DNA of 64,000 nt from the IMG/VR virus record IMGVR_UViG_2974731955_000001, positions 34,827 to 98,826 of that record. One strand, given 5' to 3'. The position numbers and the translations under genes were made by a program. The notes beneath the pieces were generated by a model. It had not been told where the DNA came from, did no database searches, and saw only the letters and a list, made by a program, of their open reading frames with translations. Every line of letters begins with the position of its first letter. Position 1 is the stretch's first letter. Positions 1,913 through 13,952 of this stretch are shown piece after piece. This stretch comes from a virus (Duplodnaviria; Caudoviricetes).

Positions 1913-2345
1913 TTCTCTTATACAAAGCCTTTGGTACGTATTGCCTGTGAAGGTAATACGTACAATCCTCAGGAGATGACAAGCATGTGGGGCGTAAGTA
2001 AATGCATATCTATATACTTAGCTGAATACGACAGAAAGAATATAGAAATACTCGTATTTGTGTTTATGATCGTGCAGATGTAAAAATCATGCCGTTAATA
2101 AGAATTGTACTGGCAATACAATTCTGCTACAACGTAAAATATGTTAGATAGCCAATTTTAAGAAGTTTTGTGTAAAAGTTTTTTAATATTTATTTTGCAG
2201 ACATAAAACTTCACAACAATTCTTGTTATTAGTTACTCACAGTACAATGTGAGTTGTTGTTAATCAACAATCGTTCATTCACAAACCTTCCCCATAGTTG
2301 TACATATGGGGACATCCTCAAAGTTATAACTTAAATTTATCAAAA

Positions 2346-2780
2346 ATGAAACAGTTATTATTGTATGGTAGCACAGGTAATAATGTCTGTGTTATCCAAA
2401 TTCCGACTAATTGGTCAGTTGATGAAGCTAGAGAATTTCTAGAAAAAGCTCTCTTAGAATTCGCAGCAAATAAGCAACACAACGAATTCTTTTCAATTTC
2501 AAATGAAGATGAACTCAACCAGAAATGGCCTAAGAAATCTTCAGAAATTGAAGAGTGTTGTAAAATTATTCTCAACAACATTGGCAGTCCAATTAATGGT
2601 GCTGGTGGTCTAATTTGGCAAGTCAGATTACAGTCATACATTATGACAAATCCTGATTTTACAAACAGACTATTCAAAGCCTTTGAGAAAAAATTAACTC
2701 GAGAAGAAGAGGCATTTCTAAGTGCCAATTATCTCGAGTTATTACCCACTTTAGTTAAAACTATTAAAAATAGTTTATAA
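2346..2780 (+). CDS. Hypothetical protein
   Basis: ORF track 2298..2780. The ATG of MKQLLL after 'ttatcaaaa' is the more likely start. Confidence 0.65.
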   Translation: MKQLLLYGSTGNNVCVIQIPTNWSVDEAREFLEKALLEFAANKQHNEFFSISNEDELNQKWPKKSSEIEECCKIILNNIGSPINGAGGLIWQVRLQSYIMTNPDFTNRLFKAFEKKLTREEEAFLSANYLELLPTLVKTIKNSL

Positions 2781-2896
2781 TGAGTAAAACATTTAAAGAC
2801 TCAAAAGGTACAAAACAAGGACGATCTGAAAAAGGTCGTCCTAAGCCAAAAATGACTCCTTACAAAAAGAGTACAAAAGTAAAAGAAGAATATTAA
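2780..2896 (+). CDS. Small basic peptide (38 aa, MSKTFKDSKGTKQGRSEKGRPKPKMTPYKKSTKVKEEY)
   Basis: ATG overlaps the upstream stop (TAATG). Lys/Arg-rich. Not in the ORF track. Confidence 0.55.
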   Translation: MSKTFKDSKGTKQGRSEKGRPKPKMTPYKKSTKVKEEY

Positions 2897-3116
2897 TCTC
2901 TCGCCAGTTATTGATATTTTTTAATTTTACATATATGGTGGTTATCCCCAAAAAGTCATGAATAAGCCAGAGTCCTAAGGCAAATCAAAGCTATATGAAG
3001 ATGTATAGTACGCTGATAAAGTAAAGGGGCTAGTGTATGATAAGACAACAAAGATTACACCGTGACTTTATTCTAAGACAACACAACATTTAACAAAATA
3101 AAATCAATTTATTAAA

Positions 3117-3509
3117 ATGCGAAGTAGAAAAAAGATGGAAACTACAAGAATTCGCAAAGCGAATGCTGTAGTAAAAGAAAAAGAGATTCTGTATTTTGCA
3201 CAGGATAGAGATGTAAGTACTCGCATGCTTGCAATACTATCCGTAAGTAAAACAAAATCTGGAGTAATGAAAGAGATAAAAGGTGCTGATGGAAAAGTCC
3301 AACAAATACTTTGTCCTGAAATTACTCGCTACAAAGTTATTTGTGGCTCCAATGGAAAAGTTGGAACAAGATTCAATACAGTAGCGTATGTTATTGTATG
3401 TAGGAAGGATATTCATAGAATAATCAATGAGACTCTAACTTGGAGTGAAACTAATCAAAGAATAAGTTTCTGGAACAATGTATATAATATGGCAGAAGAT
3501 ATAGAATAA
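3117..3509 (+). CDS. Hypothetical protein
   Basis: 130-aa ORF with an A-rich leader. Confidence 0.7.
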   Translation: MRSRKKMETTRIRKANAVVKEKEILYFAQDRDVSTRMLAILSVSKTKSGVMKEIKGADGKVQQILCPEITRYKVICGSNGKVGTRFNTVAYVIVCRKDIHRIINETLTWSETNQRISFWNNVYNMAEDIE

Positions 3510-3557
3510 AAACTTTTTTAAAAATCAATTTTATAAACCTTTTAAATTATCAAAATT

Positions 3558-3935
3558 ATGGCAGATTTCAATTTAGATGCAAAAATGCAAGAGCAAGAGA
3601 ACAATCAAGGTAAAGTTAACACTTCCGCAGTAGATAAAGCAAAAGAGAATATTGCTGCAAAGAAGTTAGAACAAGAGACTCGTGAGGTTGAACGTCGTCT
3701 ATCCAATGCAGAATCTACAGAAGATCGTGCATTAAAGGAATTACGTATGGCTCGTAAGAAAGAGGAAGCTCAAAAAGCATTTTTGACAGCTGTATCTACA
3801 GCTAAAACAAAGTTTGAGTCCGACGGAGATTATCGTGCATACGACAAAGCCGTTGAAGAAGCCGAAGAGAAGCGTGACAAGGCCGTTAGTGAGGCTAAGC
3901 GTGCTATCTATGGTGAAGATTATTGGCGTTATTGA
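3558..3935 (+). CDS. Coiled-coil hypothetical protein
   Basis: Ala/Glu/Lys-rich helical 125-aa ORF immediately upstream of the structured non-coding block. Confidence 0.8.
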   Translation: MADFNLDAKMQEQENNQGKVNTSAVDKAKENIAAKKLEQETREVERRLSNAESTEDRALKELRMARKKEEAQKAFLTAVSTAKTKFESDGDYRAYDKAVEEAEEKRDKAVSEAKRAIYGEDYWRY

Positions 3936-3939
3936 TACC

Positions 3940-4480
3940 CATTGATCACTCCAAATCAGAGCTGAGAGTGTCCGAGAGGCCTCTCAGTCTCTAATTATAG
4001 CTATATGCTGTAGTTAGAGATTAATGCCACGATTTAAAACTTCCGAATCGATAGTAGGAAAAATTACTCTGAATTAACAGAGTACTCAAGAGCCTTGAGC
4101 CAGAGTGGAAACTTTGAGCCACTGATCATGTGCCTAAGATCATTACTATCACTTGAAAAGTAACAGGATGTTACTGCTGAATCGCTAGAACCTTGAGTCA
4201 AGACCTAGTGATAGGCTTACGTAAGTAAGTTAAGTATAGTAATGATATCAAATCACACATAGAATTAGAGCTTTAAGCCGAAGTTGATGGTTATCGTCTT
4301 TTGATGGTAATTTAAAACTTCAAATTCTATAGATCTATCAAAGGCATTTACTATAGTAATAGAGAGCTTACATGCCTAAGTATTCTTTTTGAGGAGGTAA
4401 ATATGTATGCAAGCCGCATTGCGCACTCTTACAGAGTAATACACTCGCAATAAAGAAGGATACTTACTATTACTATAGAT
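3940..4480 (+). ncRNA. Candidate structured ncRNA (~540 nt) with a repeated RARCYUURAGYC motif
   Basis: No ORF. Nested helices such as 4351-4362/4467-4478 (12 bp), 4050-4056/4144-4150 and 4259-4266/4323-4330. Four motif copies. Boundaries approximate. Confidence 0.55.
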
Positions 4481-4558
4481 ATTTTAAAGAGAGTAAAGAG
4501 AGAGATCTCTTTACTTTCACTATCCCAATTTGGGAATTTGTTTGGAATTTTTCAAATT

Positions 4559-4639
4559 CATAGTATAAGAACTGTACTATGTCTTATTAGGTTTATTGGA
4601 AACTATTAGGACGAGGGTTCGATTCCCTCCAACTCCACA
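4559..4639 (+). ncRNA. ssrA: tmRNA acceptor piece (3' part of the tRNA-like domain) of a permuted two-piece tmRNA
   Basis: ACTATTA-GGAC-GAGGG-TTCGATT-CCCTC-CAACTCC-A: helix-2 strand, GGAC motif, T arm, 3' acceptor strand and discriminator A. The 5' boundary is uncertain. Confidence 0.85.
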
Positions 4640-4741
4640 TCTTTTTAAGTTTTAATTCGGTGATGTCACGCATGAATCATGGATAAAAGAATACGGCAGT
4701 AATCGCTTCCAGTACTATAAGTTCGTAATAGTATAAGGATA

Positions 4742-4790
4742 CCTGCCACCCACGGTCAGAAGCATAGAGGTTCGACTCCTCTTGGCAAGG
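4742..4790 (+). ncRNA. Mini tRNA-like element inside the tmRNA intervening segment
   Basis: TGCCA/TGGCA stem plus T arm AGAGG-TTCGACT-CCTCT (4766-4782). No canonical D or anticodon arm. Confidence 0.45.
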
Positions 4791-4851
4791 GTATAAACCA
4801 CTCCTAGATTAAAAGCCGCAAAGCTTCCAAGCAGGTGTGAGGCCTGCATAA

Positions 4852-4980
4852 GGGGTTGCATGGATTTGACTAGTAGTGAAAGGTAAAATAGGTTCGATTT
4901 AAAATTAAATGGCAATAACTTTGTCACAGATTATACTGCGATAGGAGCGTAATCTAACGTGCTAACTACGAAAGTGAGGG
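4852..4980 (+). ncRNA. ssrA: tmRNA coding piece (5' part of the tRNA-like domain plus tag ORF GNNFVTDYTAIGA*)
   Basis: GGGGTTG pairs with CAACTCC (4630-4636) including G3.U70. It is followed by CATGGATTTGAC and TAGTAGT (pairs with 4602-4608). Resume context AATTAAAT|GGC, tag ORF 4911-4952. Confidence 0.85.
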
Positions 4981-5053
4981 TATCTGATAGCTTAATGGTC
5001 AAAGCCTTGGATTTTACCAAGAGATTGTGGGTTCGAGTCCCACTCAGATAACA
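4981..5053 (+). tRNA. Non-canonical tRNA with a shortened anticodon arm (6-nt loop ATTTTA; possibly Lys-derived, anticodon undetermined)
   Basis: Acceptor TATCTGA/TCAGATA, D stem GCTT/AAGC, anticodon stem CTTGG/CCAAG, T arm GTGGG-TTCGAGT-CCCAC. Confidence 0.75.
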
Positions 5054-7728: not shown

Positions 7729-9150
7729 ATGTCTAAAAATAAGAACAACAAAAACTCTCAGCAAGCAGTAGCTACTGAGAAGGAAAAGGAGAATAAGAAC
7801 GTGCAGACTACTGCACAAGTAAGTAACCCCACAAAGAAGGAGGACAAGCCAAAAGCTGATCCAAAACCTAAGAAAGATAAGGAACAGACGGCTACTCCAC
7901 CACCTGCAGCAGATCCTTCAGTAATTGATGCTACTAAAACAGCAGAAGTTATTGATCCGGAACCAAAAAAGAAATCCAATATCCCGAAGAAGATCGATCT
8001 TGCTAAGATTTCACTGACCACTAGTCAACGATTATCCGGTGATGGTTTTGCTCGTATGTTGGATGTAGCAGAGCGCTATATCTCTCGTATGAAAGCAGGT
8101 GAGCCAGCAACCATTAAGATGGAGCAGGCGTTCACTTATAATCTTGCTTGGGGCATCACAAAGATGTCAATTCAGGCTCGTGAGGAGAAGATTGAGTATG
8201 GTCTTAATGTACCGAATGATGATGTTATTGTAACTGATATCATTGATACATTCAATAGCCTTGGAGTGGCATTAGCTCCACATGTCTCTGAAGATGGCAA
8301 GCAAATGACGCTTGAGTTTCAGGAGATTAGTCCAGAAGCAGAGAAAGCAGCCAAAGAAGAGATCAAACAAGAGAAGACTCCGGTTGTTCCAGAGTTAGAT
8401 CCTGACAAATGGAAGAGTGAAGACGATGCAAAGAAAGGATTATCTTATATTCTTGCAAAACAAGATCAGTCATTTCCAAATCGGTTTAATGAAACTTTAT
8501 TAAAGGTTCGTACCTTTAAGAAAAATCAGGAGACAGATGAAGAAAAAAAGGCTGTATGGGACAAGATTGGTTTAGGTGCCCTATTCGAGAACGCAGTTCA
8601 ACTATTAGGAAACCGCTCAACTGCTCTTGTTCGTGGATTATGTCAAGGATGTGTATCTGCCTTAATTACGGATCACAATCCGATATTTGCTCATTCAACA
8701 GTTAAGTATAACTTACCAATGTTGTCTGAGGAAGAGGCCGCTGACTTGATTAAATCCTTTATTAAAGTACGTCAGGAAGATCCTAAACTTCCTATTGACG
8801 AGACTCCAGCTGTTAAGTTTGGTATTCTTGAGGCAACTCGTGAACAGTTCCTTAACATTCCAATGGATAACGAAATGCCGTTAGCCGAAATGGGATTGAA
8901 GAAGGATGATCCAAAGTACAAACAGATTACTCTGGCTAAGAAGATTATGAATAAGTTCCTTGAAGCGTATGGAAATGAAATCGGATATGATGATCCGAAA
9001 TTCTATTTACATGCGACTAACAAGATGATCGAAATTCGTAATCTATATGTCGATAAAGATGCGGCATTTACACCGTATACTGAAAGTGAATATCCAAAAA
9101 CTACTTCTACGGAAACTGCAGATCCTGAGAAGAAGAAAGAGGGTAAGTAA
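7729..9150 (+). CDS. Hypothetical protein with a disordered K/P/E-rich N-terminus
   Basis: 473-aa ORF. No family recognised. Confidence 0.85.
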   Translation: MSKNKNNKNSQQAVATEKEKENKNVQTTAQVSNPTKKEDKPKADPKPKKDKEQTATPPPAADPSVIDATKTAEVIDPEPKKKSNIPKKIDLAKISLTTSQRLSGDGFARMLDVAERYISRMKAGEPATIKMEQAFTYNLAWGITKMSIQAREEKIEYGLNVPNDDVIVTDIIDTFNSLGVALAPHVSEDGKQMTLEFQEISPEAEKAAKEEIKQEKTPVVPELDPDKWKSEDDAKKGLSYILAKQDQSFPNRFNETLLKVRTFKKNQETDEEKKAVWDKIGLGALFENAVQLLGNRSTALVRGLCQGCVSALITDHNPIFAHSTVKYNLPMLSEEEAADLIKSFIKVRQEDPKLPIDETPAVKFGILEATREQFLNIPMDNEMPLAEMGLKKDDPKYKQITLAKKIMNKFLEAYGNEIGYDDPKFYLHATNKMIEIRNLYVDKDAAFTPYTESEYPKTTSTETADPEKKKEGK

Positions 9151-9176
9151 GTAATTATTATTAAACCATTATCAAA

Positions 9177-9578
9177 ATGAATACACATGGTAATCTACTT
9201 ACGTATATCGCATTTGCTATTGTAGGTTTATTATTAGCTTACAATACGAACTTCTTTAAATTAGAGGAAGTTCGGGCAGACCCAGTAAAACCACTAGATT
9301 TGCCCGCATTACAGTTTAATCCTAAAGCTAATTTATCTTTAGAGATTGATCTAGACAAAGGTGTTTCCAACGTAAAAAGCGATATGCCGATTGCTAACGT
9401 TGATGTCACTGTCAATCACCCCACGAAACTCGTGGAAAAGGTAGTAAAGAAACCATCTAAGAAGGAGGTAATATATGAAACAAAAACTGAATATTTGGAG
9501 AAAGTAGTGATGTTTACTCTACCTACTCCTCACTTTCACGTACCAAGTATTCAGATCCCTAAAAGCGTAGAGAGATGA
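9177..9578 (+). CDS. Membrane-anchored or secreted hypothetical protein
   Basis: N-terminal hydrophobic helix (LLTYIAFAIVGLLLAY). Confidence 0.75.
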   Translation: MNTHGNLLTYIAFAIVGLLLAYNTNFFKLEEVRADPVKPLDLPALQFNPKANLSLEIDLDKGVSNVKSDMPIANVDVTVNHPTKLVEKVVKKPSKKEVIYETKTEYLEKVVMFTLPTPHFHVPSIQIPKSVER

Positions 9579-9670
9579 AAGCAAATAATAATACATTAGA
9601 TAAATTAGCATTTGTAGGCTTAATTATCTTCTTTATAATGTGTTTATTTTTTGCATGGTGTATAACATAA
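9575..9670 (+). CDS. 31-aa single-TM peptide (MKANNNTLDKLAFVGLIIFFIMCLFFAWCIT)
   Basis: ATGA overlap with the upstream stop and a hydrophobic helix. Not in the ORF track. Confidence 0.55.
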   Translation: MKANNNTLDKLAFVGLIIFFIMCLFFAWCIT

Positions 9671-12075
9671 CAGTTAAAGATAAAAGCTGTCAGGTCAAAC
9701 GACTCCTTACCTGTAATAAGAAGAAGAAGAGTGATATTGTAGCTGTACACTTAAAAAGCAATAAGATAGCGCATATTATATTTGGATGAGTCTGATCAAC
9801 AAATCGTATAATATGGACAAGAAAGACAGGATACGAGGATATGATAGTGCTAACACACGATTCAAAAGGTAGTATGATAACTTATTAAGAGTATTTTTTC
9901 TTTTACTCAGAAAAATTAATAAGAAAATGGGTAAGTGTAGATATCAACCCATTCTATTTATATATTGAGAACCGCTTGGAGAATATATAAATTAGAGAAG
10001 ACACTTATTAATACTTATCGATAAAGTAGAGAACTATTAATATAAACGATACCGGAGTATGCTTAAGCAGCTACCAATAATATTTAGTGACAGTAAATAT
10101 TATTATGTCTAGAGTAAAGACAGTAGTCAACTTCGTTAAGAGTCCGTGGAGGAAACCAATCCTGAAATCAAGAAGGGACTTTAAACAGCAACTGCAACTA
10201 TCACAAAGGGTGATAGAATTACTCAACAAAGAACTGACTAAGTTCCAGGTAGTGTCCAAAGCTACCTTACTGAATCCATTTTAATTAATTTGGATAGGTT
10301 AAATAAATTGCTATCTTAGTGTTCACTGCATCAGTTTTGAAACGCTTATATGAAAGAATATAGGGAAAATGTAGTTATGAAGGAGATTAGATATAATAGA
10401 GGGTGCTATAAGGTGCTACGAGTCTAAATAGAGTAGAATCAATTTCTACAACTTTTACTCTTGGAAGTAAAGGTTAATAGTAGGTATTACTAGTAAGATT
10501 CATATGGCTGAGAGGCTATGATCCATACATGGGAAAGTAGATAATCGAGACTATCTATGGATATTGTATGACAGATTATCCGGATTAGGTGCCAAACCTA
10601 TACTTTATAGAACTATTATATCAAACGTGATAGTGTTTTCTGCAATTGAGTTATATCACGATAAAATAATGGAAACGCAGAGGTTTGAAGAAGTGAGCCA
10701 AATCATTAGTTCATATTATAGAATATATCTGGCAAGTATAGTATATAAGGAGAAACTTATATTTTATCTATAGTAAGTTTAATCCACTTAATACGAATCT
10801 TTACGTCAGTAACACAGCTGTTGGTTGATATCCATAAATTGTGCAAAGTTCAGTTAAAGCTTTCCTTAAAATATACAGCGAAAGTAGGGCTTCGTGAATA
10901 AGCCAATGGGCTAAATTCAAGTCTATGAAAGTAGAGCTACTGAATCTAACGATTCATCACTGGCCCGAGAGTTAACGAGACTCTTAAATAAAAGCGTTAT
11001 TAACATGTTTAACCAAAGTAGTGGCTACACCCACGAAATAGTAAATTATCGAGAAGTCCTCGCTGGTCTTATTATAGTGAATGAGCTACTGTTGTTAAGT
11101 AGAGAGTAACTTAGGATGAATGCGACTCGATCAAGCCAACCGTTATAGCTAAAAGAAAACTATTAGAGTTATATTACCGCAATGATATAATGTTCAATAG
11201 AAAGCGTTTCGCAGAAGCTTATAGACCTTTAGACCTGTCGTAAGCAAGAGTAAGCGGAAATAGGTGAAAGTCCTAGATATTCGTGCTTGTAAAACAAACA
11301 AATCCTCGTAAGGGTCACATGGGCAGTATACTGCATGTGAAAGAATAGAGTGGTAACCACTTCAGGGTGAAAAGACTGAAAGAGTTAGGTTTAGTAACGT
11401 TTCCTTAAACGACCGTATGTGTGGAGCATTCGATAAAGTAATCCTATGTGGTTTATTATAACTATCAGTATACTTAGGCCAATCTAAGGTATACACACTT
11501 TCTAGTGTATTTGTTTTGATAAGATTATAATAGTTCGCTGAAGAAGCTCAGGAATTTATAAAACTAGTAGCATGTGCATATCCCTATCAATATACAGCGG
11601 TAGAAGATAGTAAATAACGTATTGATCTTGTGACTTATTAGTCAATGTCGTAAGATCTCATTAGTCTGATGTTGGGCAAACGTAGTGGACCATTTAGGCC
11701 ATGACACGAACCTTCATTGACGAGTATGAAGAGTAAAGAAAGATTCTAAAGTAAGACTAGTTCCATAATCTGTGGTGATGAAAACACAGTATTTAAGAAG
11801 AGGAAGTATCTACTTAAATATGTCTCTATGGAGTGCTAGAGTAATAGCAATAGCAGAATTACAGAGTGAAATAGAATCCAATCTATCTCATCAAGTATAA
11901 AGAAATAATTTCAAGGAGTAAGCAATTGAATTTGCGTAGGCGATCGGATAACAGGCAACTGGGCAACAAACTCCCCTATAAGAGAAAACTCCAGTAAAGA
12001 AGTTCTTTTTATTTTTGAGTTTATTAATTTTTTAACAACATTTTAAAAGTTTCGTTGGTGGAATCAACCACGAAA
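9671..12075 (+). ncRNA. Candidate giant structured ncRNA, or cluster of ncRNAs (~2.4 kb)
   Basis: No credible ORF. More than 20 local hairpins plus nested long-range helices. Strand inferred from the flanking genes and from G.U-compatible pairs. Confidence 0.6.
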
Positions 12076-12092
12076 TCAAGGAGGAAACAATT

Positions 12093-12626
12093 ATGAATTA
12101 TATTCGAGTAAATGCCGCCATTTGCGGTTCAGTATTAGGTAAAAAGATTCTAATCGTAGAACGGAATCCAGTAGATCCAAATTATTCAGAGGATAAGAAA
12201 AACGGACGGTTGTGTCTCAGTCGCCCTATTTATCTTTATTCTATTAAGCCGATTGATGTATCTTCAGTCGAGCTTGTAACTACAGCAAATGGTGAGGAAC
12301 GGATTGAGTTTAATCATGAGCCGACATTACGGCTAGATATTGCAAATGTTGAGGATATCAATAAAGTAATTCCCGTTCCATCGGCAGCCAGTGTACGTGC
12401 AGCTATTGAGAAGTACGAACGGTCTAAAGAAGATATTACTATCTTCGTCGATTACGAAAAATTATTACGGGAAGTAATTGCGCTAAATCTTGACGAGAAG
12501 AAGACTTATGCAGCATGGTTGTCTTATCAGATGAAGTTGTGCGGCACATTAGCCGAGGCAAACGAAGCTGAGATTGCAGCTTGTAAAGCGAGTATGAAAG
12601 AGTTTGGAATTGAGATTAATCTTTAA
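12093..12626 (+). CDS. Hypothetical protein
   Basis: 177-aa ORF preceded by a hairpin and AAGGAGG (12078-12084). Confidence 0.8.
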   Translation: MNYIRVNAAICGSVLGKKILIVERNPVDPNYSEDKKNGRLCLSRPIYLYSIKPIDVSSVELVTTANGEERIEFNHEPTLRLDIANVEDINKVIPVPSAASVRAAIEKYERSKEDITIFVDYEKLLREVIALNLDEKKTYAAWLSYQMKLCGTLAEANEAEIAACKASMKEFGIEINL

Positions 12627-12631
12627 TCGCA

Positions 12632-13162
12632 ATGGATGCCCTAAGTAAATGGGCATGGTTCGATCTTTGTTATATGTTCTCTGATAGAGATTTTGTTAGT
12701 GATATGCTAGAAACAGATGAGAAAGTTCTAGCAAAACATGTTACGGTAAACAAAGATGGATCAGTGACTCTAAAAAAAACAAAATATTCTTGGATTAATA
12801 AATTATTCCGAGGTGAGATTGTACTCAGTCCAGAGACAATTTGTCTTCGACTGATTAGGAAAGTAACCGGTTACGGTGGTGGTCGAAATGACGCTGCATA
12901 CAATGATTTGTGTCAACGTTTTTCTGAATATTATAAAGACGGAAATTATAGTTTGGCTATTTCCGCAATATTTGTGGCTTATCGTTTTGTTCTAGCTCCA
13001 GATATAAAACAAATGCAAGAGAATAATCCCGTAGTTGAGAGAGGGGTTATTCGTAAAAATTCAAATGTTTTATTAAATGGAGTTATGGTAAAAGACGGTT
13101 CAGGTCAAGCTGTTGTAGTTGATTGGTCTGATCCCAATCAAATTCTATTTCGTCGTCCATAA
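12632..13162 (+). CDS. Hypothetical protein
   Basis: 176-aa ORF starting 5 nt after the previous gene. Confidence 0.8.
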   Translation: MDALSKWAWFDLCYMFSDRDFVSDMLETDEKVLAKHVTVNKDGSVTLKKTKYSWINKLFRGEIVLSPETICLRLIRKVTGYGGGRNDAAYNDLCQRFSEYYKDGNYSLAISAIFVAYRFVLAPDIKQMQENNPVVERGVIRKNSNVLLNGVMVKDGSGQAVVVDWSDPNQILFRRP

Positions 13163-13242
13163 AAATCGACAATCCTAAGTAAGAATAATATTGACAGTAG
13201 ATGAGTTTTGTTAATATTATATCTTACTCAAGATATTTACTA

Positions 13243-13273
13243 AAAGAGAGACAGATGAGTTACGTCTCTCTTT
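13243..13273 (+). terminator. Hairpin, possible intrinsic terminator
   Basis: AAAGAGAGAC...GTCTCTCTTT inverted repeat with only a short U tract. Confidence 0.4.
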
Positions 13274-13442
13274 AAATATGGACGTGATAATGTATCTGTA
13301 ATGGATACTAAGTAGATGGCTAGCTCCAAGAATAAGACGGAGATGCTATATCGAGGATAGACACGTCCTCACGGGTAGTTGATCAAATTCAAGTATAAAT
13401 CGATTTAGACAAGATGAGTATTAATTTAAAATCAATTTGTAT

Positions 13443-13952
13443 ATGAAGACAAAATCAACGGAAATTAAAACAAAATTAGAGAAGTTACACAAAGATATCT
13501 CTTGGCAGTGGAATATCATTCGTAGTGAGAACAAAGTTGAGAAAGGTTATAAACGTCGTTATGATATGAAATCCTTACTTGAGGATATCTTCAGTAAAGC
13601 AGAGGAGCGAATTCAGTGTAAACTAGATCAGCTCTGTATAAATATGGGATTTAAGTCTCGTGCGGACTTACCAAAAGACTGTATTTATCCTACTATCTTC
13701 AAGTTGTCTGAGGTAAATGAGCAATATGTTCAAATTGGTATTATTATCGATAAGGCAACAATTGATCCTTCTTATAAGATGAAAAAAGGTAAGAAGAATC
13801 TAAAAGAAGAAGAGGAACTTACTCGTGACTTCTTAAATAAGATGAAGAATAATTTGCAATTGCAGATTATCGATCTTAAAAAGAAACTGGCTGACTTCAA
13901 TGATGCTGCGGAGTTAGATCTAGATAAGGCTTATATGTATTTAGCAGCATAA
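13443..13952 (+). CDS. Helical hypothetical protein (weak resemblance to DIP1984-like proteins), ends in YLAA
   Basis: ORF track 13437..13952, with ATG at 13443. The family resemblance is by eye only. Confidence 0.7.
   Translation: MKTKSTEIKTKLEKLHKDISWQWNIIRSENKVEKGYKRRYDMKSLLEDIFSKAEERIQCKLDQLCINMGFKSRADLPKDCIYPTIFKLSEVNEQYVQIGIIIDKATIDPSYKMKKGKKNLKEEEELTRDFLNKMKNNLQLQIIDLKKKLADFNDAAELDLDKAYMYLAA

Follow-up and report, generated by a model that had tools for sequence, protein, structure and literature searches.

A very large candidate structured RNA locus in crAss-like phages of the family Suoliviridae

Relation to described large RNAs

Large ornate RNAs are rare, and those solved recently form unexpected RNA-only cages. 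The closest described systems are GOLLD, ROOL (Rumen-Originating, Ornate, Large; ~580 nucleotides (nt)) and OLE (~600 nt), with which we compare a stretch free of open reading frames (ORFs) at positions 9671-12005 (+ strand) of a 64,000-nt window, the term used below for the whole piece of DNA that was analysed. The window comes from a 98.8-kb virus record (IMGVR_UViG_2974731955_000001) of a Boorivirinae-like crAss-like phage in the family Suoliviridae (delta crAss-like phages). Phages of this family count among the abundant crAss-like phages in the gut of humans and animals, and the locus takes up ~2% of their genome. Comparison with related phages indicates that the stretch is a real, very large structured RNA locus, non-coding and on the + strand.

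GOLLD resembles the locus in being large, multi-domain and supported by covariation, in occurring in phage or prophage DNA near transfer RNA (tRNA) genes, and in its many conserved junction nucleotides. The locus is ~3 times longer, however, occurs in phages of Bacteroidota and does not match the Rfam GOLLD model. GOLLD itself forms a homo-oligomeric cage (PMC12286853). ROOL is likewise a large ornate RNA associated with gut and rumen, often lying beside tRNAs in phage contexts as the locus does; the locus differs in being four times longer, in being limited to one phage family and a fixed syntenic site, and in having no Rfam match. OLE is encoded by a large structured RNA gene in an operon adjoining small membrane protein genes, and the similar neighbourhood of the locus suggests, by analogy, a membrane-linked ribonucleoprotein. 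This likeness concerns gene neighbourhood only: OLE is bacterial (Bacillota) and the locus is phage-borne, its neighbours are unrelated to OapA, OapB, OapC or any family, and no Rfam match to OLE was obtained. Three to four times the size of such RNAs, and marked by dozens of helices that covary as well as by numerous invariant junctions, the class is a strong candidate for a new RNA architecture or catalysis.

The ribosomal RNAs (16S, ~1.5 kb; 23S, ~2.9 kb) are the only structured RNAs from bacteria or phages that approach this length. Like the locus, they consist of locally closed domains in a row, with conserved unpaired nucleotides, but their domains are joined by long-range helices, none of which was found in the locus, and the small- and large-subunit models show no similarity to it. 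Should the locus be made as one molecule, the product would exceed in size every structured RNA known from bacteria and phages, ribosomal RNA excepted. RAGATH motifs and Hatchet ribozymes, some of them catalogued from metagenomes, lie in the same early arm of Suoliviridae genomes, and their presence marks that arm as rich in structured RNAs. They are 70-220 nt long and sited elsewhere, and none overlaps the 2-kb gap in the eight genomes scanned.

Rfam 15 was scanned with the window at gathering score, with positions 9000-12700 at E < 10 and with the corresponding gaps of seven relatives (see below). In the window at gathering score, the GOLLD, ROOL, OLE, HEARO and raiA models had no match; positions 9000-12700 gave nothing at E < 10 except two chance matches; and no Rfam family was found within the gaps of the seven relatives. 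Elsewhere in the window the scan returned Hatchet, RAGATH-22, a permuted transfer-messenger RNA (tmRNA) and tRNA. A preliminary description of this DNA had recognised no known family, and the searches of the window and of the relatives' gaps agree with it. The locus is not mentioned in the crAss-like comparative paper (PMC7886860), in the Crassvirales review (PMC10136315) and papers naming Suoliviridae, in the IMG/VR survey of phage structured RNAs (PMC10690425) or in the GOLLD, ROOL and OLE literature. Candidates in that survey have a mean length of 67 nt (PMC10690425), so fragments of the locus could be among them. The locus is apparently undescribed, which is a provisional statement because the literature searched is incomplete.

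Coding potential, conservation and covariation

The longest ORF between 9579 or 9671 and 12092 has at most 69 amino acids (aa) in genetic code table 11. Reading TGA as tryptophan, or TAG or TAA as glutamine, raises the maximum in 9671-12092 to no more than 115 aa, and these alternative codes were ruled out as an explanation, each yielding no gene. Codon phase was assessed from substitutions between the window (lineage A) and a second lineage (B; L004) in six segments of the region and in the flanking genes. In the region the substitutions are spread evenly over the three phases (chi2 0.1-4.6 in the six segments; at most 3.2 in sliding windows), whereas the flanking genes, all except a short 133-aa gene, show a third-position excess (chi2 12-109). 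The initial impression of 2.4 kb without a credible gene is thus borne out by ORF scans under four genetic codes and by the flat codon phase.

Pattern and protein-anchored scans of viral and metagenome collections located more than 130 loci. Those from the viral collection include 62 distinct full-length copies in five deep lineages, A to E; a sixth, lineage F (L189), was found later. All lineages keep an ORF-free stretch of 2.4-2.5 kb, and the absence of ORFs holds in 13 lineages and in another 7 genomes. Nucleotide identity of the RNA between lineages A and B is 82%, as against 67% amino acid identity for the adjoining protein, and divergence amounts to 9-25% in the region and 25-31% in the flanking genes, the 133-aa gene excepted. 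An upstream 473-aa protein is 26-36% identical between lineages, compared with more than 85% in some blocks of the RNA. With the exception of the 133-aa gene, the stretch is conserved above its flanking genes. The Boorivirinae-type 5' motif was not found in prokaryote assemblies by a pattern scan of genome contigs.

Comparison of single-sequence folding energy with dinucleotide shuffles, a check proposed at the outset, went against the expectation of unusual stability: the core (10853-11300) gave z = -1.19 and the 5' domain (9726-10010) z = -1.41, and sliding 240-nt windows gave about -1, weaker than in the flanking genes. The hairpins, helices and repeats first quoted for the stretch are all literally present, but hairpin density and stability are not unusual. 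Since hairpin richness is at chance level, the case rests on comparison and not on thermodynamics. A minimum-free-energy fold of the full 2.4 kb was rejected as mostly wrong, its compensated pairs being only modestly enriched, and an unrestricted test of antiparallel against parallel stems had too high a background at long range.

Alignment folding of the core (10853-11295; RNAalifold, 36 sequences) gave 74 pairs, of which 29 had changed on both sides, with 98.6% of cells able to pair; slid controls gave 2-6 pairs changed on both sides. Raw counts of this kind are misleading, as a coding control gave similar ones, and column-shuffle nulls were used because RNAalifold also finds both-side changes in coding sequence. 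Alignment columns were shuffled within gap-pattern classes, segment by segment, with 12093-12435 as the coding control. Against this null the core reached z = -10.0, with 38 compensated pairs versus 8.9+-2.6, and the 5' domain z = -6.5, with 34 versus 11.5+-2.8. The alignment-fold z of the other segments ranged from -2.5 to -10, and the coding control stayed flat (z = -0.9; 12 compensated pairs versus 13.4). With lineages A and B only, compensated pairs exceeded the shuffled null in every segment, the control again being flat (4 versus 4.0). The + strand is favoured, with an alignment fold of -485.8 versus -435.9 on the - strand (alifold).

Lineage F, found after the prediction had been made, was used as a blind check. 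Of the 74 core pairs, 68 persist in it, with 11 pairs changed on both sides, 2 on one side and 1 newly broken; three pairs that had been invariant are replaced by new Watson-Crick pairs. The covariation among homologues called for in the preliminary description was thus found, above both the column-shuffle nulls and the coding control and in a held-out lineage. Our analyses show that at least the 5' domain and the core fold into helices kept by compensatory changes across subfamilies.

The individual helices proposed earlier fared differently according to their span. Four local hairpins survive intact in both lineage A and lineage B: 9772-9780/9807-9815 and 10198-10204/10210-10216 have 5 compensated pairs each, and 11315-11321/11334-11340 and 11790-11797/11813-11820 have 1 and 3, respectively. 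The helices thought to enclose domains (9762/10310, 10495/10795, 11291/11510 and 11562/11756) are broken in the reliably aligned lineage B with little or no compensation, as is the suggested pseudoknot 9932/10001. The repeated 10-mer ATATACAGCG is present in both copies but is not conserved in both.

The other Suoliviridae were reached via the sigma factor. An ORF-free gap of 1.85-2.5 kb lies at the same site in all five subfamilies, between a cluster with an ECF-type sigma factor gene and the replication genes. Outside Boorivirinae, gaps of 1.85-2.2 kb in the same gene order were found in cr56_1 (Loutivirinae), cr6_1 (Bearivirinae), cr125_1 and cr118_1 (Uncouvirinae), and cr131_1, cr272_1 and cr7_1 (Oafivirinae). 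The longest ORF in the gap has 52-83 aa in six of these seven genomes and 125 aa in cr272_1. An nhmmer profile built from Boorivirinae gives collinear + strand matches in the gaps, the best with E = 4e-12, which supplies the homologues that the preliminary description had suggested looking for, and the gaps of the relatives are also linked to one another by blastn.

Two covariance models were made, R1 from the second part of the core (29 pairs) and R2 from the 5' domain (37 pairs). R1 scored 42.9 bits inside the gap of cr56_1, 33.8 in cr6_1, 26.3 in cr7_1, 19.3 in cr131_1 and 19.0 in cr272_1, which places this domain in four of the five subfamilies. R2 scored between 76.8 and 16.4 bits in all seven gaps, placing the 5' domain in all five. 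In the alignments made by the models, 21 of the 29 R1 pairs and 29 of the 37 R2 pairs changed on both sides, with 95.9% and 96% of cells pairing, respectively. Further pair types in the R2 alignment numbered 62 versus 45.5+-3.2, and 0 of 500 shuffles reached as high a value. All R1 and R2 matches are on the gene (+) strand, and wherever both were found their order is constant and they lie ~1.2-1.4 kb apart. The two models can be used as a Suoliviridae marker.

ORFs annotated inside the locus in reference genomes are probably spurious. Likely cases are a 61-aa ORF of cr10_1 (L002, 4174-4359), a 53-aa ORF of cr125_1 (L204, 9874-10035) that is covered by an R2 match at 9798-9990, and a 160-aa ORF on the opposite strand of cr7_1 (L208, 10379-10861).

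A proposed single long RNA and the alternatives

The very large multi-domain RNA, or array of RNAs, first proposed for this stretch is supported by the lack of coding signal and of any Rfam match, by conservation, by covariation, by the held-out lineage and by the covariance-model homologues. Within that proposal, the reading we favour, with somewhat better than even confidence, is a new family of large multi-domain structured non-coding RNA, conserved throughout Suoliviridae, made as one long transcript and serving as a trans-acting scaffold. Rightward transcription of the early/middle operon would include the whole 2.3 kb in a single long RNA, possibly trimmed afterwards, ending at the sole T-rich site near 12005. 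Folding would give consecutive, locally closed domains, each of 50-450 nt, whose junctions contain many invariant nucleotides. The transcript may act in trans as a scaffold or ribozyme-like particle, analogous to OLE, ROOL and GOLLD, and its probable partners are the adjacent phage proteins, namely small membrane proteins upstream and 177- and 176-aa proteins downstream. We infer this trans-acting scaffold or particle as the best-supported working model because of the invariant junctions and covarying helices, the proximity to tRNA and tmRNA in a phage, and the operon linkage to small membrane proteins. A bolder form is offered tentatively, at rather less than even chances: the 2.0-2.4 kb would be one stable, highly structured RNA that every Suoliviridae phage makes when infecting, self-assembling into a particle or a ribozyme-like ribonucleoprotein with neighbour proteins and re-programming the Bacteroidota host. 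In any of these forms the locus is a concrete, testable element in the early/middle programme of crAss-like phages.

Several observations weigh against the favoured reading. The single-sequence folding is no more stable than that of shuffled sequence, and the effective number of independent lineages is small (~6 plus 7). The second core domain was not found by R1 in either Uncouvirinae genome, conservation of the 3' third is limited to Boorivirinae, and model-made alignments are biased towards the models' own structure. No kilobase-range covarying helix joining the domains was found, the longest supported closures being ~160-290 nt. The RNA evidence consists of assembled library contigs, which do not directly establish a transcript, its ends or its strand, and the scaffold or ribonucleoprotein role is drawn by analogy only, with neighbouring proteins that have no family or fold match.

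The RNA-library contigs come from three studies and represent relatives similar to lineage B; they show presence in RNA libraries rather than transcription, and carry no strand. In a chicken-gut RNA library, one contig of 4,995 nt runs from the gene upstream through the entire region into the genes downstream, with DNA carry-over possible, while pig and 'organism A' RNA libraries gave shorter pieces over the region. Gaps in contig cover, differences in depth between bins and RNA runs with small shares were uninformative.

The most serious alternative has several distinct structured RNAs arranged in tandem, say three to six small RNAs or ribozymes of 100-450 nt, with their own promoters or cut from a precursor. 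All covariation-supported helices are local, closed domains do not exceed ~450 nt and the long-range helices failed testing, as an array would predict. A poorly conserved linker (10681-10852) separates conserved blocks, and the domains differ in range: five subfamilies for R2, four for R1 and Boorivirinae only for the 3' third. The same phage arm has many separate small RNAs (Hatchet, RAGATH motifs, tmRNA), and the pig and 'organism A' contigs are short pieces. The region has, however, no conserved internal promoter-like or terminator-like signals (neither internal T-runs nor TAnnTTTG motifs were found), the two modelled domains, wherever both were found, follow each other in the same order with their spacing preserved, and one contig covers the entire region. 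The balance tips modestly towards one long RNA rather than an array, and we consider the array itself possible but unlikely.

A cis-acting untranslated region is a less probable explanation, one we hold to be improbable. The stretch would then be part of the operon mRNA, either trailing the sigma-cluster genes as a very long structured region or leading into the 177-aa gene, and would control transcript stability, antitermination or the translation of neighbouring genes instead of working as a free RNA. It lies on the same strand as the genes with no obvious promoter of its own, a conserved hairpin and a Shine-Dalgarno-like leader follow directly, the structure may start within the upstream ORFs (9480-9667, z = -6.7), and the chicken-gut contig connects it with both flanks. 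Known bacterial or phage leaders, however, come nowhere near 2 kb of conserved multi-junction structure in which unpaired nucleotides are invariant; the downstream gene is set off, in lineages A and B, by a promoter-like motif and a T-rich terminator-like site, and conservation is higher in the region than in the genes under its supposed control.

An element acting as DNA, for instance an origin of replication or a packaging site, with hairpins that form in single-stranded DNA or are incidental, would fit the position upstream of the replication module and the lack of genes. We regard it as very improbable: no iterons or repeat arrays were found in the region (two-copy short repeats only), and no local GC-skew shift either, the cumulative skew rising smoothly through it and turning at ~27 kb. 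Dozens of helices also carry G-U-tolerant, strand-asymmetric compensatory changes, and the element would be ~2 kb in size. Scarcely credible is decayed or recoded coding sequence, or an ORF-less self-splicing intron: crAss-like phages use stop-codon recoding and carry introns (PMC7886860) and small ORFs are annotated inside the gap in relatives, yet there is no long ORF with TGA as tryptophan or TAG or TAA as glutamine, no codon periodicity, no match to group I or II introns in 9000-12700 at a threshold as loose as E < 10, an ORF-free state kept through every lineage and further genome, and complete flanking genes, the upstream ORFs ending in a stop and the downstream gene having its own leader and start codon. 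The origin and the decayed coding or intron sequence, named at the outset as what might overturn the RNA proposal, thus left no trace in iterons, skew, codon periodicity or intron matches.

Organisation and surroundings of the locus

The locus as a whole (9671-12005, + strand, as are all features below) would begin after the stop of a 31-aa ORF and end at a T-rich terminator-like site; both ends are putative. That ORF (9575-9670) is predicted to encode a transmembrane peptide, is conserved as a protein, its nucleotides diverging by only 2% from lineage A to lineage B, and forms the 5' border of the locus. The segment 9480-9667, covering the end of the 133-aa ORF and the 31-aa ORF, has an alignment-fold z of -6.7 with 12 versus 4.5 compensated pairs, and the structured RNA may therefore begin upstream of 9671, overlapping coding sequence.

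Two small 5' hairpins (9670-9675/9685-9690 and 9691-9695/9709-9713) have 4 and 2 compensated pairs in 36 sequences, and their loop sequences are swapped between lineages. The 5' domain (9726-10010), matched by R2 in five subfamilies, is predicted to contain helices 9734-9740/9828-9834, 9742-9746/9766-9770, 9772-9781/9806-9815, 9881-9887/9917-9923, 9928-9930/9949-9951 and 9963-9966/9982-9985. The middle region (10046-10680) has alignment-fold z values of -10 (10046-10330) and -3.2 (10331-10680), with 8 versus 1.6 and 4 versus 0.8 compensated pairs, respectively, in lineages A and B, and was detected in cr125_1 (E = 8e-12, nhmmer). Its supported hairpins and helices are 10150-10153/10160-10163, 10198-10204/10210-10216, 10395-10399/10613-10617, 10451-10459/10466-10474 and 10626-10638/10649-10660. 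The linker (10681-10852) shows the lowest conservation and a weak alignment-fold z of -2.5.

Part 1 of the core (10853-11130) is supported by covariation, by the column-shuffle null and by the held-out lineage L189. Helices 10858-10864/10880-10886, 10888-10890/10902-10904 and 11049-11053/11126-11130 are accompanied by a putative three-way junction, in which 10908-10913/10961-10966 is the closing helix and 10922-10925/10932-10935 and 10941-10946/10951-10956 are the hairpins, and by a further hairpin at 10967-10971/10981-10985. The invariant joiners of this part include CACTGGCCCGAGAGT, TAACATGTTTAA and GAAGTCCTCGCT. Part 2 (11124-11300), the basis of R1, would be closed by helices 11131-11136/11285-11290 and 11141-11148/11275-11283 and contains hairpins 11168-11173/11185-11191, 11217-11225/11238-11245 and 11262-11264/11272-11274 (AGG-UGAAAGU-CCU). 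The motif AAAGTAG occurs in five + strand copies within 10023-11021 of the window, compared with ~0.7 expected from the window-wide rate, often at the foot of a hairpin.

The 3' region (11296-12005) is conserved mainly within Boorivirinae lineages A-C. Compensated pairs in lineages A and B number 9 versus 1.5+-1.1 (11296-11640) and 10 versus 1.1+-1.1 (11641-12010), and the hairpins include 11315-11321/11334-11340, 11468-11475/11487-11494, 11770-11774/11785-11789, 11790-11797/11813-11820 and 11922-11925/11932-11935. In 11986-12033 a short stem (11988-11992/11999-12003) is followed by the sole T-runs of the region, in lineages A and B only, and the 3' end of the RNA is probably at this T-rich terminator-like site (~12000-12033). 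At 12010, TATTTTTG fits the -7 promoter motif of Bacteroidetes and may be used by the gene that follows. Between 12049 and 12092, a hairpin with compensated pairs (12051-12060/12065-12074) and an AAGGAGG motif form the leader of the 177-aa gene; the hairpin was found in cr6_1 (E = 8e-7, nhmmer) and weakly in cr131_1, and it borders the RNA and may or may not be part of it. The strong Shine-Dalgarno-like AAGGAGG is odd in phages of Bacteroidota, since the ribosomes of these bacteria mostly disregard sequences of this kind (PMC9976891).

The closest named relatives of the window are the uncultured crAss-like phages cr55_1, cr1_1 and cr10_1, one from each of the three genera of Boorivirinae. Prevotella is the predicted host of one Suoliviridae member (PMC12697116). 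Every gene in ~1-27 kb of the window is on the + strand. Upstream of the ORF-free stretch lie, in order, the ECF-type sigma factor gene (Pfam), genes for the 129-aa, 473-aa and 133-aa proteins and the 31-aa ORF; downstream are four uncharacterised genes, including those for the 177- and 176-aa products, a tRNA and replication genes leading to DNA polymerase. For the neighbouring proteins no Pfam or PHROG family and no protein-atlas neighbour was found. The 473-aa protein (window 7729-9150) has 35 relatives, many with 50-64% identity. Its AlphaFold model (predicted local distance difference test score, pLDDT, 69 overall and ~90 in the helical C-terminal part) predicts a Lys/Pro-rich disordered N-terminus of ~86 residues and a confident, all-helical C-terminal domain, for which a PDB fold search gave no match.

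Near-identical DNA (at least half of the sampled words) was present in bovine and bear gut metagenome runs, with smaller shares in wastewater, and the metagenome contigs carrying the element are mostly from human gut and ~100 kb long. In one copy (L003, 2489-5000, compared with window 9579-12092) the flanking protein is 99% identical and the RNA only 94%, and the loop of the first hairpin matches lineage C, not lineage A; this points to recombination within the RNA locus.

The Suoliviridae early arm appears as an RNA island. Window positions 1965-5051 hold Hatchet, RAGATH-22, the permuted tmRNA and a tRNA-like gene (Rfam), and the early arms of the relatives (L202-L208) hold RAGATH-7, RAGATH-7-assoc, RAGATH-9, RAGATH-20, hammerhead, group I intron, Hatchet and tmRNA. 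The strongest local folding of the scanned 6 kb (z -4 to -5) is at window 12860-13460, and a 274-nt intergenic gap inside that stretch (13163-13436) may be another structured RNA.

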